64,000 bases of DNA from Candidatus Levyibacteriota bacterium (GCA_043823085.1 JBDRBE010000001.1:47267-111266), one strand, 5' to 3'; counted from the stretch's first letter, positions 8,985 to 62,182 are shown. Translations and numbers: made by a program. Notes: generated by a model from the letters alone, not told the origin.

Positions 8985-9569
8985 TTATCTTAATCCTATT
9001 GCAGTTTGAAAAGTTTTACTTTCAGGCCCGGATTTTTTGATTGTTTTACTAGTTAAAGTAAAAGCTACTTTAATGGTGCTCTTCCCTTCTGTTTGCCCAA
9101 GTTGCATGAAGCTTAAATTTGATACACTTGTATCATTGCCATTTAATTGATCTGCTCCTAACATCAGATTACCATTGTTTAAGCTATAAACATAATCATC
9201 GCTATTTATAGTAATTGTTAAAGTTTGCGACTCGACTCCATAAGAAAGAGGAACCTTAACATCACTTGCTCTCCCAATGTCATAATTTAATCTTGAAAAA
9301 AGATATTTGCCGTCTTCCTGAACGCCGGACGTTGCTTCTGTATCAAGCTGTACATCTAAAATTGCCGTAAAAAGCTGAACCAAAACCAAAAGAAGCATCG
9401 AAAAAATACCAAGATAAATTAGAAGCTCAATAAGAGTAAACCCCGCACCTACGACTTTACGGCTCACCCCGCTGACTCGCCTCGCTTCGCGGACATTGAT
9501 TAACTCTTGTTTTAACGAACAGATATTGTGGTGCGGGGTAAATCCTTTTATTTTTTTGATTTTTAACAT
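8985..9569 (-). CDS. prepilin/pseudopilin with a 34-codon in-frame insertion in the leader (see mobile_element 9440-9539)
   Basis: ...KVVGAG|FTLIELLIYLGIFSMLLLVLVQLF is the class III signal. The leader is about 40 aa instead of the usual 6-25. Confidence 0.7.
   Translation of the reverse strand: MLKIKKIKGFTPHHNICSLKQELINVREARRVSGVSRKVVGAGFTLIELLIYLGIFSMLLLVLVQLFTAILDVQLDTEATSGVQEDGKYLFSRLNYDIGRASDVKVPLSYGVESQTLTITINSDDYVYSLNNGNLMLGADQLNGNDTSVSNLSFMQLGQTEGKSTIKVAFTLTSKTIKKSGPESKTFQTAIGLR
9440..9539. mobile_element. MITE-like insertion (about 100 bp) with perfect 10-bp terminal inverted repeats ACCCCGCACC / GGTGCGGGGT
   Basis: 9440-9449 accccgcacc is the exact reverse complement of 9530-9539 ggtgcggggt. 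The interior is GC-rich (ctcgcctcgcttcgcgg) in an AT-rich gene. Coding-strand direct repeats gGaTTTAC / gGgTTTAC flank it. Removing the 102 nt between them restores KG|FTLIELL. Confidence 0.45.
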
Positions 9570-16914: not shown

Positions 16915-19632
16915 TTATCTAATTTGGGGATAATGACATTTTTTCCACTTTTTCTTACTTCCGCACCAACAAGGATCGTTGCGGCCCAATTTTCTGCTCT
17001 GTGCATCCGAATTCCTACTTTCCGAATTCCCATTCGACATGTGGGAAGCTGATTTTTTTACATCCGTTTTAATCGACGGTTGTTGTGGCGCAACTTGTAC
17101 TGAAATTTTATAAATTCTGTGGACGATCTGGTCATCAATTGCCGACATTAATTGTTCGAACATTGTAAAAGCTTCATTTTTATATTCTACCAATGGATCG
17201 CGTTGACCATAGCCCCGAAGTCCGATTCCCTGACGAAGATTTTCTATAGCATCTAAGTGATCCATCCATAAATTATCAATAACCGAAAGCATCACAAACC
17301 GCTCAATTTGTCTTGTTAAATCGCTACCCATTTGCTCTTCTCTTTTTTGATAAATATCCAAAGAAACTTTTGAAAGAAAATTTATTTTTTCATCCGTTTC
17401 TAATAACTGCTCAAGTTGTTTTGCAAGTTGTTTTTGCGATAATTCGTCAAATGGAATAATGGTTGAAAATTCTTCAACAATTTTTTCGTCAGGTAATTTA
17501 TCTACCTCATAATTTTGTACGCTATTAACATTAACAATTGCCGAAATAATATTGTTAATTTTATTAAATATTTCCTCTTTTAGTGAATTTTGCTCTGATG
17601 CTTTTTCGTCCAAAGGACGATCAGCCCTTGGCTGAGATACCTCTAGTACTTTTCTTCTTGCTTTGTAAATTATTTCTCTTTGTTTGTTTAAGACATCGTC
17701 ATATTGAACTAAATGCTTTCTAATGTCAAAATTAAATCCCTCGACTTTAATTTGCGCCTGTTCTATCGCTCTTGACACAACCGGATGTTGTAAGGGTACG
17801 TCTTCTGGCATATTAAATCTTGTCATTAAACCGGCAATTCTGTCTCCGCCAAAAAGTCTCATAATCTCATCGTCTAACCCAACAAAAAATCTTGAAACTC
17901 CGGGATCTCCCTGACGGCCGGAGCGGCCCCTTAACTGATTATCAATTCTTCTCGACTCATGACGCTCTGTTCCAATAACATAAAGTCCTCCTAAATCCAC
18001 AACCTCCTTGTGTTTTTTTTCCCATTGTTCCCACTCCTTTGTTCCTCTTTTTTCCCTGCCATCCTCAAATTTTGGACTATCACCGCCCAAAATAATATCA
18101 ACACCACGACCTGCCATATTAGTTGCAACTGTGACTGCTCCCTTAACGCCTGCCATCGCCAAAATTTCTGCTTCTCTTTCGTGATTTTTAGCATTCAAAA
18201 CCTCATGTTTTATTCCACGTCTTCGTAACAACTCGGAAATAATTTCATTTTTATCAATAGCTGTTGTTCCAACTAATATTGGTTGTCCAATTTTATGCGC
18301 TTCTTCTATTTCGAGAGCCACTGCAGATAATTTTGCCCGTCCTGTTTTATAAACCGCGTCGGAATTATCAACTCTTATCATTTTTTTATTAGTCGGAACA
18401 ACAACAACATTAAGTTTATAAATTCTATGAAATTCCTCCGCTTCTGTAAGTGCAGTTCCGGTCATTCCCGCCAGTTTCTCATACATTCTAAAATAATTTT
18501 GTAAAGAAACCGTTGCTAAAGTTTTTGATTCCCGTTGTATCGGTACTCCTTCTTTTGCTTCTATTGCTTGATGAAGTCCTTCAGAAAGTCTTCGTCCTAT
18601 CATCAAACGACCGGTAAATTCATCGACTAAAATTACCTGATTATCTTTGACAATGTAATCTTTTTCTTTTTGGAAAAGAGTTCTTGCTTTTAGCGCTGCT
18701 TCTAAATGATAAACCGTATCAAAGTCTCTTTCATAAATGTTGGTAACACCATACATTTTTTCAATTTTTGCAATCCCATGATCGGTTAAATGAGCTGTCC
18801 GTAATTTTTCATCAACTTTGTAATCAATACTTGACGTTAACTTATCAACTAATTTTGAATATTCATAATATTTTTCCGATGGTTCGCTTTGCGGCGCGGA
18901 AATAATATGGGGAGTCCTTGCTTCATCAATCAAAACCGAATCAACTTCATCAACTATGGCAAAATTATGTCCTGTTTGAACAACCTCGGGAATACTTTGA
19001 GCCATATTATCTCTTAGATAATCAAAGCCAAATTCCGAATTAATGCCATAAATAACATTTGCCTGATAAGCTTCTTTTCTTGTAATTGGTCTTAAATGAA
19101 CTAGTCTAAAATCTGTTGTATCTTTATTGTGGAACGACGGATCAAAAATAAAAGATTGATCGGAAATAATTGAAGAAACAGAAATTCCCAAAAGATTAAA
19201 AATAGACCCCATCCAACCGCAATCTCGTCTTGCCAAATAATCGTTAACTGTCACCAAATGAACACTTTTGCCAGTTAAGCTGTTAAGATATAATGCTGGA
19301 ACTGCCGACAAGGTTTTTCCTTCTCCTGTTTTTTGTTCTGCAATTTTTCCCTGCGAAAGAACAATCGCCGCCATTAGCTGTACATCAAAATGTCTTTGAC
19401 CCAAAGTTCGTCTGGCCGCTTCTCTTACAAGTGCAAAAGTCTCCGGGAGTATTAAGTCTAAAGATTCTCCGTTTTCAATTCTTTTACGAAAATCTTCTGT
19501 TTTTTTTAGAAAATCTTTTTCTTTTAATTTTAAAGTTTCTTTCTCAAAAGAATTTATTTCTAAAACAATGGGTTTTAATTTATTTATTTCTTTTTCGTTA
19601 TTACTAAATATTTTATTTAAAAAAGAAAACAT
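16915..19632 (-). CDS. secA: preprotein translocase ATPase SecA
   Basis: 905 aa. DEAD-like motor domains. C-terminal zinc-binding tail CWCGSKKKWKKCH. Confidence 0.95.
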   Translation of the reverse strand: MFSFLNKIFSNNEKEINKLKPIVLEINSFEKETLKLKEKDFLKKTEDFRKRIENGESLDLILPETFALVREAARRTLGQRHFDVQLMAAIVLSQGKIAEQKTGEGKTLSAVPALYLNSLTGKSVHLVTVNDYLARRDCGWMGSIFNLLGISVSSIISDQSFIFDPSFHNKDTTDFRLVHLRPITRKEAYQANVIYGINSEFGFDYLRDNMAQSIPEVVQTGHNFAIVDEVDSVLIDEARTPHIISAPQSEPSEKYYEYSKLVDKLTSSIDYKVDEKLRTAHLTDHGIAKIEKMYGVTNIYERDFDTVYHLEAALKARTLFQKEKDYIVKDNQVILVDEFTGRLMIGRRLSEGLHQAIEAKEGVPIQRESKTLATVSLQNYFRMYEKLAGMTGTALTEAEEFHRIYKLNVVVVPTNKKMIRVDNSDAVYKTGRAKLSAVALEIEEAHKIGQPILVGTTAIDKNEIISELLRRRGIKHEVLNAKNHEREAEILAMAGVKGAVTVATNMAGRGVDIILGGDSPKFEDGREKRGTKEWEQWEKKHKEVVDLGGLYVIGTERHESRRIDNQLRGRSGRQGDPGVSRFFVGLDDEIMRLFGGDRIAGLMTRFNMPEDVPLQHPVVSRAIEQAQIKVEGFNFDIRKHLVQYDDVLNKQREIIYKARRKVLEVSQPRADRPLDEKASEQNSLKEEIFNKINNIISAIVNVNSVQNYEVDKLPDEKIVEEFSTIIPFDELSQKQLAKQLEQLLETDEKINFLSKVSLDIYQKREEQMGSDLTRQIERFVMLSVIDNLWMDHLDAIENLRQGIGLRGYGQRDPLVEYKNEAFTMFEQLMSAIDDQIVHRIYKISVQVAPQQPSIKTDVKKSASHMSNGNSESRNSDAQSRKLGRNDPCWCGSKKKWKKCHYPQIR

Positions 19633-29811: not shown

Positions 29812-30933
29812 ATGCTCATTTTAGGAATTGAAACTTCTTGCGACGAAACATCAGCGGCAATTGTGGAAGACGGAACAAAAGTTCTTTCTAATGTTATTTC
29901 TTCATCTCTTCCTCTTCACGTTAAAACAGGCGGAATAATTCCGGAAGTTGCCGCAAGACAACAAATTAAATATATTATTCCTGCAATCAATCAAGCTTTA
30001 TTAGATGCATTTGACGTGGGAAGTGAGAAGTGGGATCTTGATGTTTTGAAATCAAGAAATCTTGACGTCAAGAATTCAAGATCAAAAATATCTCACCTCT
30101 CACGTCTCATTTCTAAAATCGATGCCATTGCCGTCACTGTTGGTCCGGGGCTAATTGGTTCACTTCTTGTCGGCGTTGAAACAGCCAAAACTTTAGCCTA
30201 TGTTTGGAAAAAACCGATAATACCGGTCAATCATTTAATCGGCCACATCTACGCTAACTTCGTTAGCGAAATTTCAAATTTCAAATTTCAAATTTCAAAT
30301 TCGTCAATTACTTTCCCCGCTCTTGTTTTAATCGTTTCCGGCGGACATACTGATTTACTATTGATGAAAAATCATGAAAAATTAAAGTGGCTGGGCGGAA
30401 CCCGTGACGACGCAGCCGGCGAAGCATTTGATAAAATCGCAAGACTTCTTGGCCTTCCTTACCCCGGGGGACCAATAATTGAACAAAAAGCAAAAAACGG
30501 AAACCCTAAAGCTTTTAATTTTCCAAGGCCGATGATTGATTCAAATGATTTTGATTTTAGTTTCAGCGGTTTAAAAACAGCAGTTTTACGCGAAACCAAA
30601 ACAATTAAACAATTAAGCAATGAAACAATCGCTAATCTTTCCGCTTCTACCCAACAAGCCATTGTTGACATTTTAGTTGCCAAGACTTTAAAAGCCGCAA
30701 AAGAATATAATGTTAAATCAATTCTTCTTTCCGGTGGCGTCTCGGCGAATGATAAATTACGAGAACAATTTCAACTAGATGCTAGACGCTACTTACTAGA
30801 TGCTAATATTTTTTATCCCGATAAAAAATATTGTACAGATAATGCTGCTATGATCGCCTCGGCCGCATTCTTCAACTACAAACCCCTAGACTGGAGAAAA
30901 ATTACCGCTAATCCTGAACTTTACTTTATTTAA
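29812..30933 (+). CDS. tsaD: tRNA N6-adenosine threonylcarbamoyltransferase TsaD
   Basis: MLILGIETSCDETSAAIV N-terminus and the Kae1/TsaD fold. Contains the in-frame tandem 7-mer repeat (30271-30300) encoding NFKFQISN. Confidence 0.9.
   Translation: MLILGIETSCDETSAAIVEDGTKVLSNVISSSLPLHVKTGGIIPEVAARQQIKYIIPAINQALLDAFDVGSEKWDLDVLKSRNLDVKNSRSKISHLSRLISKIDAIAVTVGPGLIGSLLVGVETAKTLAYVWKKPIIPVNHLIGHIYANFVSEISNFKFQISNSSITFPALVLIVSGGHTDLLLMKNHEKLKWLGGTRDDAAGEAFDKIARLLGLPYPGGPIIEQKAKNGNPKAFNFPRPMIDSNDFDFSFSGLKTAVLRETKTIKQLSNETIANLSASTQQAIVDILVAKTLKAAKEYNVKSILLSGGVSANDKLREQFQLDARRYLLDANIFYPDKKYCTDNAAMIASAAFFNYKPLDWRKITANPELYFI
30271..30300. repeat. tandem heptanucleotide repeat (ATTTCAA)x4 plus 2 nt, in-frame inside tsaD
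   Basis: Exact 7-mer copies at 30271, 30278, 30285 and 30292. 30 nt in total, so the frame is preserved. Confidence 0.8.
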
Positions 30934-34540: not shown

Positions 34541-37500
34541 ATGTCAGATGTTAGAATTTTAAATGTTGAACAAAGCAAAGCGGTTAAACACGAAGTTGGT
34601 CCTCTTTTAATTATCGCCGGAGCAGGATCCGGAAAAACTACTGTTATTACCGAGCGAATAAAACATTTAATTCTTAAAAAGAATATTCTTCCTCAAAATA
34701 TTCTTGCTCTTACTTTTACCGAAAAAGCGGCACGCGAAATGGAAGAACGCGTTGATATTGCCATGCCTTACGGCTACACTCAAATGTGGATTTCTACTTT
34801 CCATGCTTTTTGCGACCGGATTTTGCGAAACGAAGCAATTCATATCGGGCTTAATCCTTCTTATAAATTAACAACAGAGGCCGAATCTGTAATGTTTTTG
34901 CGCCTTAATTTATTTAAATTTGACTTTAATTATTTTCGTCCGCTTGGCAACCCCAATAAATTTTTAGAAGGACTTTTGCAGCATTTTTCAAGACTAAAAG
35001 ACGAAGACATTAACCCTTTGCAATACCTTGAATATGCAAAGGGAATTTTAAATGTCAAATTTCAAATATCAAATAAAAAATTAGACGCTAAACGCTATCC
35101 GCTAGACGCTGACGACGATGAGGTTAAAAAGAACATTGAACTTGCAAATGCCTATAAAACCTACGAAGATTTGAAAGTAAAGGAGGGCATTATGGATTTT
35201 TCCGATCTTATATCCAACACCTTAAAACTTTTTCGGCAAAGAAAAAATATTTTAAAAAATTACCAAGAACAATTCAAATATATTCTGGTTGATGAATTTC
35301 AGGATACCAACTTTGCCCAAAACGAATTAGCAATTTTACTTTCGGGAAGTAAGAAAAACATTACGGTTGTTGGCGACGACGATCAGGCAATTTACCGCTG
35401 GAGAGGAGCGGCAATTTCAAACATTATTCAATTTCGAAAACATTTTCCAGATGCAAAAGTTATAACTCTGATTAAAAATTACCGCTCGACAAAAGAAATC
35501 CTTGATAAGTCTTATGCTCTTATTCAAAATAATAATCCCGATAGATTAGAAGTAAAAGAAAAAGTAAATAAAAAACTTGTTTCAATGAGGAAATTAAAAG
35601 GAGAACAAATTGAATTTCTATTTGCTCCAAGGGTTGAAGACGAAGCAGATCTTGTTGCTAAAAAAATTGAAGAACTCACTACGAGCCACGCGCCATCTGC
35701 AAATTACCACTTTCACGATATTGCCATTCTTGTTCGTGCTAACGACCATTCTCAAGCTTTTACAAGAAGTTTGGAAAGACATAATATCCCTTTCCAATTT
35801 TTAGGCCCCGGTCAGCTTTTTAAAAAAGAAGAAATAAAAGATTTAATTGCCTATTTAAAAGTTCTTTATAATTTCGAAGACTCCGCATCGCTTTATCGCA
35901 TAATGAATATGCCAATTTTCAAATTTGAAGCAATAGAAATTGCCACTCTTTTAAATTATTCAAAAAGAAAAAACCTCGGTCTTTTTAAGACATTAGAAGT
36001 TGCCGCGCAAAAAGATCCGCCAGCTGGCGGAGAAATTTCTTTCAAAGAAAAAACTAAGGAAAAAATAAAACATATTTTTGAAATGATAAACAAACATTTA
36101 AAAAGGGTCCCCAAAGACACTGCTGGTCAAATCCTTTATTATTTTCTACAAGATACCGGTCTTCTCAAAGAAAGCTTGAATATCAAATCACAAAGTGATG
36201 AAAAAAAATATCAAAACATTGCGAGGTTCTTTGAGAAACTAAAAGCTTTTGAAGCAGATCATGAAGATGCTTCTATTTTTGCTGTAGTTGACTGGATTGA
36301 TCTTTCAATGCAAATGGGCGAAAGTCCGCTTGCTCAAAATTCGGACTGGCAGGATATTAATGCCGTTAATATTCTAACAATTCATTCAAGTAAAGGACTT
36401 GAATTTCCAATTGTTTTTTTAGTTAATCTTGTCACGCAAAGATTTCCAACCAGAGACAGAAAAGAACAAATTCCAATCCCGCAAGAGCTAATTAAAGAAA
36501 TTCTGCCGGAGGGAGATTATCACTTAGAAGAAGAGCGCCGTTTATTTTATGTTGGCGCAACCCGTGCAAGAGATTTACTTTTTTTAACAGCGGCAAATTT
36601 TTACGGCGAAGGAAAAAGAGAAAGAAAAATTTCTCCCTTTGTTTATGAAATGCTGGGAGAAAAAACAGTTGAAAATCAAACACTGAAACAATCAAACACT
36701 GAAACAATCAAACAATTATCTCTTCTTGCATGGTCAACACCAAAACAAGAAATTCCAGCTTCCAGCTTCCAGCTTCCAGCTTCGCCACCCCTCACTTATC
36801 TTTCTTACTCGCAGATTCAAACTTTTGATATCTGCCCCCTGCATTACAAACTTAAATATATTCTAAAAATCCCGACTCCGCCTTCTTGTGCCCAAAGCTT
36901 TGGAACAAGTATACACAGCGCTCTTCGCGATCTTTATCAAAATTTAATTGGAGGATTAAAAATTTCCGAAAAAGAGCTTTTAAGGATTTTAGAAAACGAT
37001 TGGATAAACGAAGGCTATCAAAGTAAAGCGCACGAAGAAAAAGCATACGAGGGCGCAAAAAAAATAATTTTAAATTATTTTGAAAATAATTTTAACCCAA
37101 AAAAAATTCCGGCTGCTCTTGAAACTCCTTTTAAATTCAGTTTAAGAAGACAAGAAGTAAATTCACCAAGCTTAATGGTTGGCGGGAGGATTGATAGGAT
37201 TGATGAAATTGATAATAATAAAATTGAAATTATTGATTATAAAACCGGCAATAATGTCCCCGATGAAAAAAAACTGGCGGATGATTGGCAATTAACCTTT
37301 TATGCTTTGGCTGCAACAGAAGTTAGAGATAATTTATTAAATAAGAAACCCGAGAACGTTACTCTTTCTCTTTATTATTTGGAACCGAATATAAAACTTA
37401 CAACTATTAGAACAAGAGAACAATTGGAAGAGGCAAAAAAGAAAATTTTGGAAAAAGCAGATGAAATTGCAAACAGTGAATTTAAATGCAGTCAAAACAA

Positions 37501-38060: not shown

Positions 38061-38480
38061 CCTAGGAAGAAGGATCGCTACCCGCCAATATTTGCGCCAT
38101 GAGCCGTGTACGAATAGTACTGAAAAGGCGAATGGCAAAAATTAGGCGGGAGGAAAGTCCAGACAGGTGTAAAGCCCGGGACGGAGCGTAAACTCCGATT
38201 AGCAATAACTAGTGTTTTGATGCTTTACCCCGCTCAGCGGGGTGAACCCACATGTGGCATCAAAAACAAATTCTGAATTGACAGAATTTGAGAGCAACAG
38301 AGACGAGTGGGAGTGAAACGAGCAATCCTACCGGCTGCAACCTCCGAATGGTACGTCAAAACTTGCTTTACAGGAGTACCGAAGTTTGAGGGCACCGCGT
38401 CAAACGCGGCAGGGGTGACTAAATATCACAACTGAGATAGATTGCGATTAGAACAGAATCTGGCTTATTCTCTTCCTAGG
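38061..38480 (+). ncRNA. rnpB: RNase P RNA, bacterial type
   Basis: Conserved P4 5' strand GGAGGAAAGUCC at 38149-38160 and the 3' strand ACAGAAUCUGGCUUA at 38452-38466, with compensatory changes (AGUCCAGA / UCUGGCUU). GAGUGAAACGAG and GUAAACUCCG motifs are present. P1 pairs cctaggaaga (38061-70) with tcttcctagg (38471-80). A T-run follows. Confidence 0.85.
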
Positions 38481-53681: not shown

Positions 53682-54176
53682 TCATTTTTTCAATTCTTTT
53701 TTTATTTGCAATTTTTCATACCTTTGGGAAAGAATTTCAAGGGCTTTCATGGCGGCGTAAACATTGCTTGCTTGATTTTTTGTTCCAAGCACTTTTGAAG
53801 AAATATTGTGTATCCCTGCCGCTTCCACAATGCTTCTGATTGCTCCTCCGGCAATAACTCCGCTTCCAAGCGGTGCTGGTTTTAACAAAATTTTGGCTGC
53901 TCCAAGCTTCATACGAACTTCAAACGGAATTGTTCCGTTTACAGTCGGAACTTTAAGCATGTGTTTTTTAGCAACAGATATACCTTTTTTAATTGCCGAT
54001 GAAACATCCGGCGCTTTTCCAAGACCAACTCCAACCGACCCATTTTTATCACCAACCACAACAAGTGCAGAAAATCCGATTTTATTTCCACCCTTAGTTT
54101 TTTTGGAAACTCGGTTTACTTGAACTATTTTTTCTTCAAATTCGCTTTGATTGCCAAAATTATAATTATTCATCAA
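53682..54176 (-). CDS. rpsE: 30S ribosomal protein S5
   Basis: [36 protein letters not shown]. Only 31 nt separate it from rplO, so there is no rpmD (L30). Confidence 0.9.
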
Positions 54177-54559
54177 AATTCCAAACCTCCTTCTCTTGCG
54201 CCTTGTGCAAGAGATTTAATTCTACCATGATAAATATAACCTCCTCTGTCAAAAACAACTTTCTTAATTTTTTTCTCCAATGCTTTTTTTGCCAAAACCA
54301 TCCCCAGATTTTTAGCCTGAATTGATTTTTGTCCCCCTTGCCTGCCGGCAGGCCCGCCTGCCGAGCGGGCAGGCTGGTTTTTTTCTTCCAAGTGACTTTC
54401 TGTCATTCCTAATATTGTTTTTCCTTCTTCGTCATTAATTAACTGAACGTAAATGGCTTTATTTGACCTAAAAACAGAAAGCCTTGGCCTTTCTTTGGTC
54501 CCCCTGACTTTACTTCTTACTCTGGATTGTCTTTTTATTTTATTTTTGTTCTTATTCAT
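54173..54559 (-). CDS. rplR: 50S ribosomal protein L18 with a GC-rich in-frame insertion
   Basis: [18 protein letters not shown] ... [28 protein letters not shown]. It carries an extra [15 protein letters not shown] segment encoded by palindromic GC-rich DNA at 54338-54380. Confidence 0.9.
54338..54380. repeat. GC-rich palindromic in-frame insert within rplR (cctgccggcagg ... gcctgccgagcgggcaggc)
   Basis: 12-nt perfect palindrome cctgccggcagg (54341-54352), followed by the hairpin gcctgcc-gagcg-ggcaggc. It sits in an otherwise AT-rich gene. Confidence 0.6.
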
Positions 54560-55735: not shown

Positions 55736-56308
55736 TTATTTTGCGAATGGCATGCCCAATATTTTCAAAAGTGCGCTGCCTTCCTCATTGTTTTTAGCCG
55801 TTGTGACAATAACCACTTCAAGTCCTTGTATTTTATCAACTTTCGAAGGATCAATTTCAGGGAAAACAGTATACTCATTAAAACCAAGTGAGTAATTACC
55901 GCGTCCGTCAAAACTCTTTTGGCTTACGCCATGAAAATCTCTAAGTCTTGGAAGCACAATATTTGTCAATTTTTCGAAAAAAGAATACATTCTTTTTCCC
56001 CTTATTGTTACTGTCAATCCAATCTCGTCTCCTTGTCTTAATTTAAAAGAAGAAATTGCCTTTTTTGCCTTTGTGACTTTTGGTTTTTGACCTGAAAGGG
56101 CAGCTAGAATTACAGACGCTTTCTCAACATTCTTTTTATCGGAGAGTGCATCTTTTACGCCCAAATTAAGCACAATTTTTGATAGCTTGGGTAGAGCCAT
56201 CAAATTTTTTGCACCAAGTTCTTCTTTTAATTTTGTCCGCCAGTCGGCGGATTCTGAATTAAATCTTGTTTGTAAAGCACTCATATTGTTTGTTTGCATT
56301 TCTTGCAA
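55736..56308 (-). CDS. rplE: 50S ribosomal protein L5
   Basis: NLMALPKLSKIVLNLGV ... ITIVTTAK. Confidence 0.9.
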   Translation of the reverse strand: MQEMQTNNMSALQTRFNSESADWRTKLKEELGAKNLMALPKLSKIVLNLGVKDALSDKKNVEKASVILAALSGQKPKVTKAKKAISSFKLRQGDEIGLTVTIRGKRMYSFFEKLTNIVLPRLRDFHGVSQKSFDGRGNYSLGFNEYTVFPEIDPSKVDKIQGLEVVIVTTAKNNEEGSALLKILGMPFAK

Positions 56309-57942: not shown

Positions 57943-58594
57943 TTATTTCTCCTCCGGTCTATTTATCCAAACTTTTACTCCAATATAGCCTTTTTTAGTT
58001 AAAGCCGGAACACTGGCAAAACTAATATGCTCGCGGATCGTTGAAAGCGGAACCTTACCGATATGTAATTTTTCCCTGCGGCTGATTTCCGCTCCGGCTA
58101 TTCTCCCCGATAGTAAAATTCTTACTCCTTTTGCTCCTGAACTCATAACCCTTTCTCCGGCCGAAAACAGTGCACGTTTATAAGGCATTCTCTTAATCAA
58201 CTGCTCGGAAATGTTCTTTGCAACCAAGTATGCGTCGAGATTTGGTTCTTTAATTGGTTCAACTTTAATATCTAGTTTTGGCAAATTCTTTGTATTTTTT
58301 TTTAGTTTTATTTAAAATAGCAACAAGGAATTTTTTTAAATCATCAAGTCCTGTTCCGCCTCTGCCAATTACGATTCCAGGCCTTGAAACATAAATTATC
58401 AATTTTAAACTATTTATTGATCTTTCAATTTCTACCCTGGCAATGCCGGCAATTCTTAATTTTTCCATTAAAGCTTTTCGAAGAGTATAATCTTCAAAAA
58501 GAACATCTTTATATCTTTTACTGTCAAACCAACGGCTTTCCCAGTTATAAATTGTTCCAAGTCTTAAAACTTGCGGATTAACTTTTTGCCCCAC
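57943..58594 (-). CDS. rpsC: 30S ribosomal protein S3, interrupted by a frameshift at an A9 homopolymer (two ORFs: 58265-58594 N-part from a GTG start, 57943-58284 C-part)
   Basis: The N-part reads [13 protein letters not shown]...GIVIGRGG (KH domain) and ends 8 codons after the A9 run at 58295-58303. The C-part ([19 protein letters not shown]...[20 protein letters not shown]...YIGVKVWI) is in the +1 frame. Deleting one A joins them into a normal S3. Confidence 0.85.
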
Positions 58595-58595
58595 A

Positions 58596-58896
58596 GAACC
58601 TCCTTCCAGCCCGCCCCGCTTCGCTTGGCGAGGCCGGGGTCGGTAATAAACCAATGCTACAAATAAACAAATAATTTAATTTGCGGACAACCCGAAGCGG
58701 GTGACGCGAGGAAGTTTGGCGCGGGGAGGCGTAAAATTTTCGCAGTTCGCATTTCGAGCTTACAACTTTTGATGGAAATTTCAAAAGACTCCAGGGTTTT
58801 ATTCTGTTTCGAATTAAATCCAAACTGTTGCGAGTTGCGGAACAAGAAAACTTTTGCGCCGACCTAAGCGCCTTCTGCAACTTTTGACAGACACAA
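58596..58896. repeat. roughly 300-nt GC-rich mosaic insert between rpsC and rplV (hairpin 58610-58643; 20-mer shared with the rplC-rplD insert at 58692-58711; transketolase-homologous block 58716-58872)
   Basis: Normally rplV and rpsC abut. The sequence cccgaagcgggtgacgcgag is identical to 61265-61284. The 58721-58759 and 58823-58872 segments match transketolase 1572-1613 and 1651-1700 at roughly 85% identity, including identical runs of 15 and 13 nt. Confidence 0.6.
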
Positions 58897-60600: not shown

Positions 60601-61242
60601 TTATTTCTCCTTTAAAAAATAATCCTTGGCTTCCTCTAATGCCTCTTTGGCAAAAATAAGCACTTTATTATTTAAAATTTGATAAGTATTAATTGTATTT
60701 ACCAATATAAAGCTTGTATTTTCAATATTTCTTACAGCCCTCATAATATTTTCCGCGTCTTTTGGCAAAACCAGCATAATTTTTTTACCAGAAAGTTCCA
60801 AGTTTTTTAAAGTGTTTGCCATATTTTTTGTTTTTGGCTCCAGGGTTTTTAGCCCTTTTATAATTTTTATTTCTTGGTCTTTTAATTTTGCAGAAAGTGC
60901 CGAAAATAAAGCCGATCTTTTCATTTTTTTAGAGAGTTTTAGCGAATAATCTCTTGGTTTTGGTCCAAAAGCAAGTCCTCCCTTAACAAAAATCGGAGCT
61001 CGTATTGATCCATGTCTTGCCCGGCCTGTTCCTTTTTGCTTATATATTTTTCGACTTGATCCTTTGACCTCACTTCTGGTTTTGGTTGAAGCTGTTCCTG
61101 TTCTCTGATTTGCTAAATAAACTCTGACTGCTTGACTTATTAATACTTTATTTACTTTTACACCAAACATTTCTTTTGGTAATTCCATTGATTCAACAAC
61201 TTTTCCTTTTAAATCGTAAACGTCAACTTTTAAACTACCCAT
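60601..61242 (-). CDS. rplD: 50S ribosomal protein L4
   Basis: The true start is MGSLKVDVYDLKGK... at 61242. The listed ORF extends to 61431 only because the GC-rich insert has no in-frame stop. Confidence 0.85.
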   Translation of the reverse strand: MGSLKVDVYDLKGKVVESMELPKEMFGVKVNKVLISQAVRVYLANQRTGTASTKTRSEVKGSSRKIYKQKGTGRARHGSIRAPIFVKGGLAFGPKPRDYSLKLSKKMKRSALFSALSAKLKDQEIKIIKGLKTLEPKTKNMANTLKNLELSGKKIMLVLPKDAENIMRAVRNIENTSFILVNTINTYQILNNKVLIFAKEALEEAKDYFLKEK

Positions 61243-61402
61243 CTTGCTTCTCAAATCGCGGGGAGCCCGAAGCGGGTGACGCGAGCCAGAGACCTTGCTG
61301 GCACGCAGTCCGCCAGTTGGCGGATTAGCCGTACGAGTACCAGCGAGATGGCGAGCGGCAGGACCCGCGAGGGCGACCTTTGATTTTTGATTTTTGATTT
61401 TT
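61243..61402. repeat. 160-nt GC-rich insert (about 65% GC) between rplC and rplD, with internal palindromes
   Basis: It contains cccgaagcgggtgacgcgag (61265-61284, identical to 58692-58711), the palindrome ccgccagttggcgg, inverted ends tcgcgggg...cccgcga, and then (GATTTTT)x3. Confidence 0.6.
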
Positions 61403-62182
61403 TTAACTGGCATTTTCATCCTCTTTACCATCCGTAGCTTTAGCGGAGGATGGCTTTACCTCCTTGCCCTCTGAAGCTTTAGCGAAAGAGGGCTTTTTTT
61501 CTGGCTCTTTTGATTCTTCAATTAAAGCTTCTTTGTAAAGCGGTACGAACTTTTTATCTTCCCCGACTTTTTTAATTGAAACAAGGCTATTTTTTGGCCC
61601 AGGAACCAATCCTTTTATTAAAACTAAATTGTCTAAGACATCCGCTACAATTTGGTTTTTGATTGTCACATTTTCATGCCCCATTCTCCCTGCCATTCTT
61701 TTTCCTTTGTAAACTCTTCCCGGTGTAGTGGTTTGACCGATTGACCCCGGCGCTCTTTCTCTGTCTGACTGACCGTGAGTTCTTGGTCCGCCTTTAAAAT
61801 GATGTCTTTTAACAACGCCTGCGTAACCTTTTCCTTTGGAAACGCCTGAAACATCAACAATATCTCCCGGCTTTAATACATCTTGAGCATTGATAGTCTC
61901 TCCAAGTTTTGGAGAATCGGAGATTTCGTTTACTCTTACTTCGCGCAAAAAATGAGGAGCAACTTTTAAGTTTGCTCCTTTGATATGCCCTTGCAATGCT
62001 TTTGACGGATGCTTTTTAGTTCCAAGACCAATTTGAAGGCTGTTATAGCCATTTTTATCTTTATTCTTAACCATGGCAACAACATTACCGGAAACATTAA
62101 TTTCCGTCACAGGTATTCTTGTTCCATCTTCCAAAAACTTTTGTGTTTGTTTTTGTTTTATTCCAAAAATTTGATTAATCAT
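61403..62182 (-). CDS. rplC: 50S ribosomal protein L3 (with Lys/Glu-rich C-terminal extension)
   Basis: MINQIFGIKQKQTQKF ... GVSKGKGYAGVVKRHHF. Confidence 0.9.
   Translation of the reverse strand: MINQIFGIKQKQTQKFLEDGTRIPVTEINVSGNVVAMVKNKDKNGYNSLQIGLGTKKHPSKALQGHIKGANLKVAPHFLREVRVNEISDSPKLGETINAQDVLKPGDIVDVSGVSKGKGYAGVVKRHHFKGGPRTHGQSDRERAPGSIGQTTTPGRVYKGKRMAGRMGHENVTIKNQIVADVLDNLVLIKGLVPGPKNSLVSIKKVGEDKKFVPLYKEALIEESKEPEKKPSFAKASEGKEVKPSSAKATDGKEDENAS

Follow-up and report, generated by a model that had tools for sequence, protein, structure and literature searches.

Why does a ribosomal protein gene in an AT-rich genome contain a short stretch of GC-rich, palindromic DNA? The 64,000-nt stretch of Candidatus Levyibacteriota DNA that we analyzed (hereafter, the window) has an overall GC content of 35%, and the stretch in question lies within rplR, the gene for ribosomal protein uL18. 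The rplR product matches the Pfam family PF00861 (Ribosomal_L18p) over profile positions 2–116 of 116 (E = 2.3e-36) and solved L18 chains with E values of about 1e-30, and an identical protein is recorded as the L18 of a Candidatus Levyibacteriota MAG. The ORF is flanked by rplF (L6) upstream and rpsE (S5) downstream, and both the full-length profile match and this placement assign the gene to uL18.

The original prediction, made from the DNA alone, described an in-frame insertion at 54338–54380, composed of a perfect 12-nt palindrome followed by GCCTGCC-GAGCG-GGCAGGC. Both components are present on the plus strand (54341–54352 and 54356–54374, respectively), and the object is the same, although the predicted coordinates lie about 3 nt off the limits defined by codons (Table 1). 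The 12-mer is part of a longer perfect palindrome of 14 nt, GCCTGCCGGCAGGC, at 54340–54353. Both GCCTGCCGGCAGGC and GCCTGCC-GAGCG-GGCAGGC have a single occurrence in the window, whereas dinucleotide-preserving shuffles predict 0.02 and 0.00, respectively. The insert has a GC content of 0.81, compared with 0.33 for the remainder of rplR, a difference as pronounced as had been anticipated. On the coding strand, the region reads AAC CAG CCT GCC CGC TCG GCA GGC GGG CCT GCC GGC AGG CAA GGG GGA (16 residues) and includes two consecutive hairpin units, the second of which can alternatively be drawn as the loopless palindrome GCCTGCC/GGCAGGC (54340–54353). A direct repeat of 21 nt within the insert matches at 15 of 21 positions. 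On the opposite strand, the first hairpin and an adjoining T-run form a terminator-like site whose neighboring genes all lie on the minus strand; this site is probably a by-product of insertion beside Lys/Glu codons. An Rfam search of the sequence at gathering and permissive thresholds gave no match.

Table 1 Coordinates and states of the features discussed in the text. Positions without a locus prefix refer to the window.
Feature	Location	Strand	Details
rplR (ribosomal protein uL18), insertion host	54173–54559	minus	128-aa ORF
In-frame insert, 42 nt, codons 62–75 (14 residues)	54335–54376	minus	Missing from P0003/L084 and P0004/L085; 38 of 41 consensus positions match
Hairpin unit 1, CCTGCC-CGCTC-GGCAGG (coding strand)	54357–54373	minus	Stem extendable to 7 bp, 54356–54374
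Hairpin unit 2, CCTGCC-GGCA-GGCAAGG (coding strand)	54336–54352	minus	
Terminator-like site, hairpin unit 1 then TGGTTTTTTT	54356–54384	plus (antisense to rplR)	Consensus scan
rsmH site, empty state	L228		AAT AAT/TTC
rsmH site, 21-nt state	L226		CTGCCTGCCGGCAGGCAAGGT, encodes LPAGRQG
rsmH site, 42-nt state	L191		Encodes 14 residues
Family B copy in window	36016–36031		
Family B copy in window	56236–56251		rplE N-terminus
Family B copy in window	61309–61324		rplC–rplD spacer
Family B copy elsewhere	L087:1692–1707		L18 loop, PPAGG
Family B copy elsewhere	L089:4941–4956		L18 loop, PPAGG
Family B copy elsewhere	L227		rsmH

Comparison with other L18 genes resolves the segment into a cleanly delimited insertion of 42 nt in a single loop. 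The rplR product exceeds its nearest relatives (112–114 aa) by exactly 14 codons and solved L18 structures by 10–12 residues, in agreement with the extra segment that had been proposed. The closest insert-free relatives, P0003/L084 (72% identity, 112 aa) and P0004/L085, read EEKN/GQKS across the site, and in both P0003 and P0004 the empty-site DNA is GAAGAAAAAAAT/GGACAAAAA. A closer relative, P0002 (77% identity; three assemblies, L081–L083), carries a 42-nt segment at this codon position. Had the segment been a lineage-specific loop, relatives might have encoded it in AT-rich, non-palindromic DNA with conserved residues; the L081 insert, LPARLAAERAGRQE, is instead 79% GC and partly palindromic, and it has diverged, with poorly conserved residues and most of its pairing lost (fold z = −1.2).

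Given an insertion site common to the window genome and P0002, the simplest history would be a single insertion in the common ancestor of the window genome and the P0002 lineage. Outside the insert, rplR and the L081 gene are 83.5% identical (16.5% diverged). The window copy, with near-perfect stems, is nearer to the repeat consensus described below (about 93%) than to its L081 ortholog, a pattern that fits poorly with a simple single old neutral insertion.

The same loop has independently received similar DNA in other lineages. Measured from 'SHLEE' to 'AKNLG', it spans 17–19 residues in most of the 120 best relatives and 32 in the window L18; across relatives its length extends from 12 to 46 residues, and ~15% of the 120 carry inserts. 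An unrelated L18 (L086, 57% identity) has CCTGCC-TACC-GGCAGGCAGG (PAYRQAG) at this loop, and two others, L087 and L089, have the 16-mer TCCGCCAGCTGGCGGA (PPAGG). Taking the window copy and its ortholog together with L086 and with L087 and L089, the L18 loop has acquired GC-rich palindromes at least four times. A scan of a genome collection with the L18 protein returned, among the matches listed, only distant non-CPR L18 loci.

An AlphaFold model of the rplR product retains the L18 fold (mean pLDDT 79.8, 28-sequence alignment), and only residues 61–74, which correspond to the insert, fall below a pLDDT of 50. These residues are modeled as a coil joining strand 47–53 to helix 75–95 (the β3–α2 loop), consistent with a disordered, tolerated extra loop that probably lies at the protein surface, as had been predicted. 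Because the length of this loop differs from relative to relative and the model shows it as disordered, it would tolerate added length, which may be why the insert copy persists.

To look for the repeat beyond L18, we scanned metagenomes with the pattern GCCTGCC(N3-6)GGCAGGCGGGCCTGCC, which specifies 23 bases and leaves the loop free. The core pattern is present in at least 120 metagenome stretches with unrelated flanks, where by our estimate chance would yield a handful at most, even in DNA of 70% GC. We refer to these repeats, to which the palindrome of the L086 L18 gene also belongs, as family A. Their loci range from 34% to 71% GC among the matches listed, the loop left free by the pattern is CGTCC in most listed copies, and at least eight unrelated flanks display sharp boundaries. 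The 41-nt consensus is CCTGCCTGCC-CGTCC-GGCAGG-CGGG-CCTGCC-GGCA-GGCAGG. Its unit of ~21 nt consists of a 4-nt spacer and CCTGCC-loop-GGCAGG, and it commonly occurs as a head-to-tail dimer of 41–42 nt whose ends form 10-nt inverted repeats, CCTGCCTGCC ... GGCAGGCAGG. Longer tandem arrays consist of abutting 21-nt units. The stems are unchanged among variants of the second loop (GGCA, GGTA, GGAA, GGGA and GGCAA), and many copies have other sequences in place of CGTC, namely TCGCC, CGAC or TACC. As single-stranded DNA, the consensus has a folding energy of −18 kcal/mol (z = −3.0). All six of its frames are free of stop codons, and family A can therefore enter genes without truncating the protein.

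The L18 insert is identical to the consensus CCTGCCTGCCCGTCCGGCAGGCGGGCCTGCCGGCAGGCAGG at 38 of 41 positions, and one additional A (CAAGG) brings it to 42 rather than 41 nt. The L18 insert shares this CAAGG variant of the second hairpin unit with a copy in a DegT gene (L215) and a copy in rsmH (L226). Alignment to the consensus places the element at 54336–54377, so that its boundary is ambiguous by 1 nt relative to the codon-defined insert. We assign a probability of about 0.8 to the reading that the L18 segment is one copy of a tiny GC-rich palindromic repeat, non-coding and dispersed among uncultivated bacteria. The prediction that the segment is the footprint of a small palindromic element inserted in frame is supported by this dispersed family and by the filled and empty sites. 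The proposed search for the repeat unit led to the large dispersed family, including copies in Levybacteria rsmH, and, within the 64-kb window, to no second family A copy in a mismatch-tolerant hairpin scan, near-matches being at chance level. As the sole family A copy within the window, the L18 insert may be an old relic.

Among the matches listed, we distinguish 113 family A instances, 47 of which have flanks below 50% GC. Twenty-one of these 47 lie inside ORFs of at least 600 nt and use at least four of the six combinations of frame and orientation. A further category, comprising 13 copies among the matches listed, is found in stretches whose open frames all fall short of 300 nt and that are therefore probably intergenic. 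Hosts of in-frame copies verified with Pfam are DegT aminotransferase, RsmH, KdtA, FolD (two sites), ValRS, GpsA (an array), IspE, IlvC, a radical-SAM protein and a DEAD-box helicase. One 14-residue frame rich in Pro, Ala, Gly and Arg recurs in L18, RsmH, DegT and KdtA because the same DNA is read in the same frame. Several copies can occur within a single contig (for example, L133 and L162), and those in contigs of 60–70% GC may in part be low-complexity coding repeats, such as the PARPAGG tracts in an IF-2-like N-terminus.

Two hosts show the element both present and absent at a fixed site. The rsmH gene of L191 is assigned to Levybacteria on the basis of its named RsmH relatives (63–72% identity), and one codon position in Levybacteria rsmH exists in three states: empty, 21 nt and 42 nt (Table 1). 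These states, together with the tandem arrays, indicate gain or loss of 21-nt units at a fixed site. The second host, a kdtA gene in L113 whose named relatives belong to Candidatus Omnitrophota, carries a consensus copy of family A. In its closest relative the site is empty (LNGQT-GEQANRQ), and further relatives have distinct element-like inserts in that loop. The Levybacteria rsmH and L18 hosts and the Omnitrophota kdtA host place family A in at least two phyla, Patescibacteria and Omnitrophota, and it is additionally present in GC-rich lineages.

Family A is also present in a 37% GC contig with phage-type genes (L096, equivalent to L108 and L112), including those for a structural protein, a tape-measure-like protein and a protease. 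Of its two copies, at 9300–9320 and 9437–9474, one is in frame and one is intergenic. In a viral-contig scan, the intergenic copy, GCCTGCCCGACGGCAGGCGGGCCTGCC, lies directly upstream of a gene that itself contains CCTGCC-GAACA-GGCAGG in frame (IPAEQAGP). This phage-like contig is a possible vehicle between hosts. Searches of 72,556 plasmids and 50,697 cultured-phage genomes with the consensus (blastn) gave no match.

An alternative reading is that the sequence was kept or recruited for a function at its site, as a hairpin for mRNA stabilization or processing in the spc operon, as an antisense terminator, as a site for protein binding or of the DNA-uptake type, or as a useful peptide loop of the ribosome, and that its recurrence reflects selection and not selfish spread. 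Such roles have been credited to REPs (PMC3733652), and several observations are in keeping with them: the plus-strand hairpin and T-run score as terminator-like, stems are conserved and loops variable across copies, and the stems of the window copy are near-perfect despite the divergence of the flanking gene from L081. However, the L081 ortholog has lost most of this pairing and its residues are poorly conserved, the insert is missing from most L18 relatives, and Rfam contains no match. The spread of copies over at least four of six frame and orientation combinations and over intergenic DNA indicates that no single peptide has been selected. We consider a site function unlikely.

Less probable still is a local origin of the segment, in which the loop expanded de novo by slippage or template switching on a quasi-palindrome and the resemblance to DNA elsewhere is a convergence of GC-rich, low-complexity sequence. 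The direct repeat inside the insert and the variable length of the L18 loop in many lineages are compatible with such an origin, as are the palindromes of a second family, described below as family B, which add ~9–12 nt at similar loops and overlap local GCTGG-like sequence. Against this, a palindrome templated locally, in DNA of 33% GC, should be AT-rich. Moreover, the 38 of 41 matching positions, which span the spacer and both stems, agree with a consensus present in more than 100 unrelated contexts, and most listed copies share a CGTCC loop that the search pattern left free. De novo local expansion is thus strongly disfavored.

That the insert is a chimeric join or hairpin artifact of a MAG could draw on the 19 of 113 listed instances within 150 nt of a contig end and on an apparent rpsC frameshift at an A9 run in the same operon, but contig-end copies are expected because dispersed repeats break short-read assemblies, and an artifact is effectively excluded by an insert of exactly 14 codons in frame, a diverged ortholog at the same codon position in three other assemblies and an identical protein from two sources (NCBI and Logan). 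We also rejected a CRISPR array, since the tandem units abut and have no spacers, and an intrinsic terminator of the operon, since the terminator-like site lies opposite to the strand that carries the genes. Transfer of a patch from a GC-rich L18 was discarded as well, as the DNA on either side of the insert is AT-rich and native to this L18 gene.

If the segment is a copy of a dispersed repeat, its history would involve several processes. Insertions would persist only if their length were divisible by three and the frame they fall in were benign, and the number of units would change through slippage or unequal recombination. Spread to new sites would call for a trans-acting activity that recognizes hairpins, most likely a mechanism dependent on hairpins in single-stranded DNA, of the REP/IS200 type, as has been proposed for REPs and RAYTs (PMC3116915). 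Comparison of filled and empty sites revealed no target-site duplication at L18 (GAAGAAAAAAAT^GGACAAAAA) or rsmH (AATAAT^TTC), and no consistent repeat flanked the eight copies compared. In an all-against-all comparison of 1,963 ORFs from the 120 loci, only generic families and orthologous contigs recurred; no recurring protein beside the copies was transposase-like and no RAYT was found near them, within flanks of at most 15 kb and with RAYTs being single-copy per genome.

A bolder proposal is that family A represents a class of 'nano' mobile element, with a 21-nt head-to-tail unit that is free of stops in six frames, which moves between the co-occurring, ultra-small Patescibacteria and Omnitrophota and their phages and repeatedly remodels surface loops of essential proteins, ribosomal ones included, without a linked transposase. 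Recent movement between phyla would explain near-identical copies in hosts of 34% to 71% GC. We regard this proposal as speculative and less likely than not.

Several described systems resemble family A. The palindromic elements of Rickettsia (RPEs; Ogata et al. 2000, summarized in PMC10969869) are about 100–150 bp long, restricted to Rickettsia and AT-rich like their hosts. RPEs and family A are alike in being non-autonomous palindromic repeats that lie in frame in unrelated housekeeping genes, are compatible with the protein fold and are translated (PMC10969869). In-frame copies in unrelated genes are found for family A in L18, RsmH, KdtA, DegT, FolD, ValRS, GpsA and IspE. Family A is set apart from RPEs by its length (21–42 nt, three to seven times shorter), its GC content (~80%), its head-to-tail units and its presence in at least two phyla, with Levybacteria and Omnitrophota as hosts.

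REPs are mainly extragenic and mostly form inverted (head-to-head) doublets, and GTAG REPs adjoin RAYT genes (PMC3116915, PMC3733652). In common with REPs and REPINs, family A consists of GC-rich, multi-copy, non-coding stem-loops of 20–40 nt that are sometimes intragenic or clustered and have fixed stems and variable loops. CGTC-tagged REP families combine an unpaired tail close to CCA with stems of 8–9 bp whose first pairs are A-T (PMC3733652). In the minimum-energy fold of the family A consensus, a CGTC immediately precedes the central stem-loop, CGGCAGG-CGGG-CCTGCCG, on its 5′ side. However, the tag is missing in many copies and is replaced by CGCT in the window copy, the stem is 6–7 bp and entirely G-C, and the tail is GCA or GGC. 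Family A also differs from REPs in being often intragenic, as for the AT-rich-flank copies described above, and in its head-to-tail units, though the dimer has 10-nt terminal inverted repeats. None of the REP families given in the text of PMC3733652 contains CCTGCC/GGCAGG. We place family A outside the described REP families because it departs from them in extragenic bias, inverted doublets, A-T stem base and CCA tail.

In yeast mitochondria, GC clusters, which include the 'byp' elements, have terminal AG/TAG repeats that are read as target duplications, and some are skipped by translational bypassing (PMC8811140). Like family A, these clusters are short GC-rich palindromes in an AT-rich genome that occur in frame in a ribosomal protein gene (var1/rps3), singly or in tandem, with fast loop change (PMC8811140). 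They are organellar, whereas family A is bacterial, has no terminal duplication and maintains an open frame that needs no bypass. As in MITEs, terminal inverted repeats are present in family A (10 nt), but the target-site duplication is lacking. In cyanobacteria, Elhai and colleagues reportedly described in 2008 'very small mobile repeated elements' of ~20–30 nt with hairpin potential, located inside other sequences; these repeats are similar to family A in size and hairpins and differ in sequence and hosts. Searches of the accessible literature by exact DNA string, peptide string and topic returned no account of family A. On present sequence comparisons, family A appears to be a variant of the REP/RPE kind that falls outside every described family compared.

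The L18 case alone is modest. What is unexpected is the family: tiny, free of stop codons in six frames, shared by more than one phylum, frequently situated inside genes and found in CPR genomes. Reduced CPR genomes thus carry selfish-looking palindromic DNA in essential genes, including that for a universal ribosomal protein, and the same tiny element is found nearly unchanged in another phylum of ultra-small bacteria and in a phage-like contig. Family A could serve as a marker of DNA exchange among uncultivated lineages, and it adds variation to the loops of conserved proteins. It also hinders alignment-based phylogeny from ribosomal proteins and probably causes contigs to break in assemblies of these lineages. 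REP-like elements without a dedicated transposase are a standing puzzle, made explicit for CGTC REPs (PMC3733652), for which the many environmental copies of family A and their filled and empty sites provide material.

Other repeats occur in the window and in related contigs. The family B palindrome, TCCGCCAG(N)TGGCGGA, has three copies in the window (Table 1), where 0.07 would be expected, and an identical family B 16-mer is present in Levybacteria rsmH, two codons from the family A site. Only ~9–12 nt are added on net by family B, which suggests that it may arise differently from family A. Family B is found in viral contigs of ~50% GC in approximately five distinct contexts, too few for enrichment. 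A third type of palindrome is represented by ACCCCGCTCAGCGGGGT at 38227–38243 in the window and by GTCCCGCTCAGCGGGAC in rplF of Levybacteria (L089:4335–4351).

In the S10 operon, the rplC–rplD spacer (about 61240–61403, ~165 nt) is a mosaic of GC-rich palindromes that contains CGCGTCACCCGCTTCGGG..CCCGCG, a family B 16-mer and (TGATTTT)3 at 61381–61400. Reading through this spacer gives L4 a spurious N-terminal extension, the probable rplD start being MGSLKVDV. Tracts of (TGATTTT)n also flank family A copies in nine loci (L118, L144, L152, L162, L177, L192, L218, L220 and L224), which are dense mosaics of short repeats around these copies and include CGTC-ATTCC...GGAAT units resembling classical CGTC-tagged REPs. 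Adjacent to the rplC–rplD spacer, at about 61403–61480, the rplC C-terminus encodes a repeated L3 tail, ...SFAKASEGKEVKPSSAKATDGKEDENAS, and several Levybacteria RsmH C-termini have similar short tails (SAKGRSASG, SARGGSALG and DPSFAKA). These tails may represent another small repeat that is translated at gene ends.

The rplV–rpsC spacer (58597–58896, ~300 nt) contains GC-rich hairpins and shares CGCGTCACCCGCTTCGGG, here at 58691–58711, with the rplC–rplD spacer; it has no match in Rfam at gathering thresholds. In the related Levybacteria contig L089, rplV and rpsC are only 2 nt apart. At nine consecutive A residues (58295–58303), a frameshift splits the window rpsC into two ORFs (58265–58654 and 57943–58284); the L089 ortholog of rpsC is a single ORF of 214 aa. 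The split may reflect an assembly error in the homopolymer or a genuine frameshift.

The original prediction also drew a parallel with a prepilin leader. Judged by reading the sequence, the patch concerned (about 9460–9486), in a prepilin-type ORF (8985–9569, minus strand), is GC-rich but belongs to neither family A nor family B. It encodes REARRVSGVSR just before GFTLIELL and contains half of a CCCCGCT-CAGCGGGG palindrome. Further GC-rich islands lie at 17898–17931 (ORF 16915–19632, minus strand) and 30389–30422 (ORF 29812–30933, plus strand).
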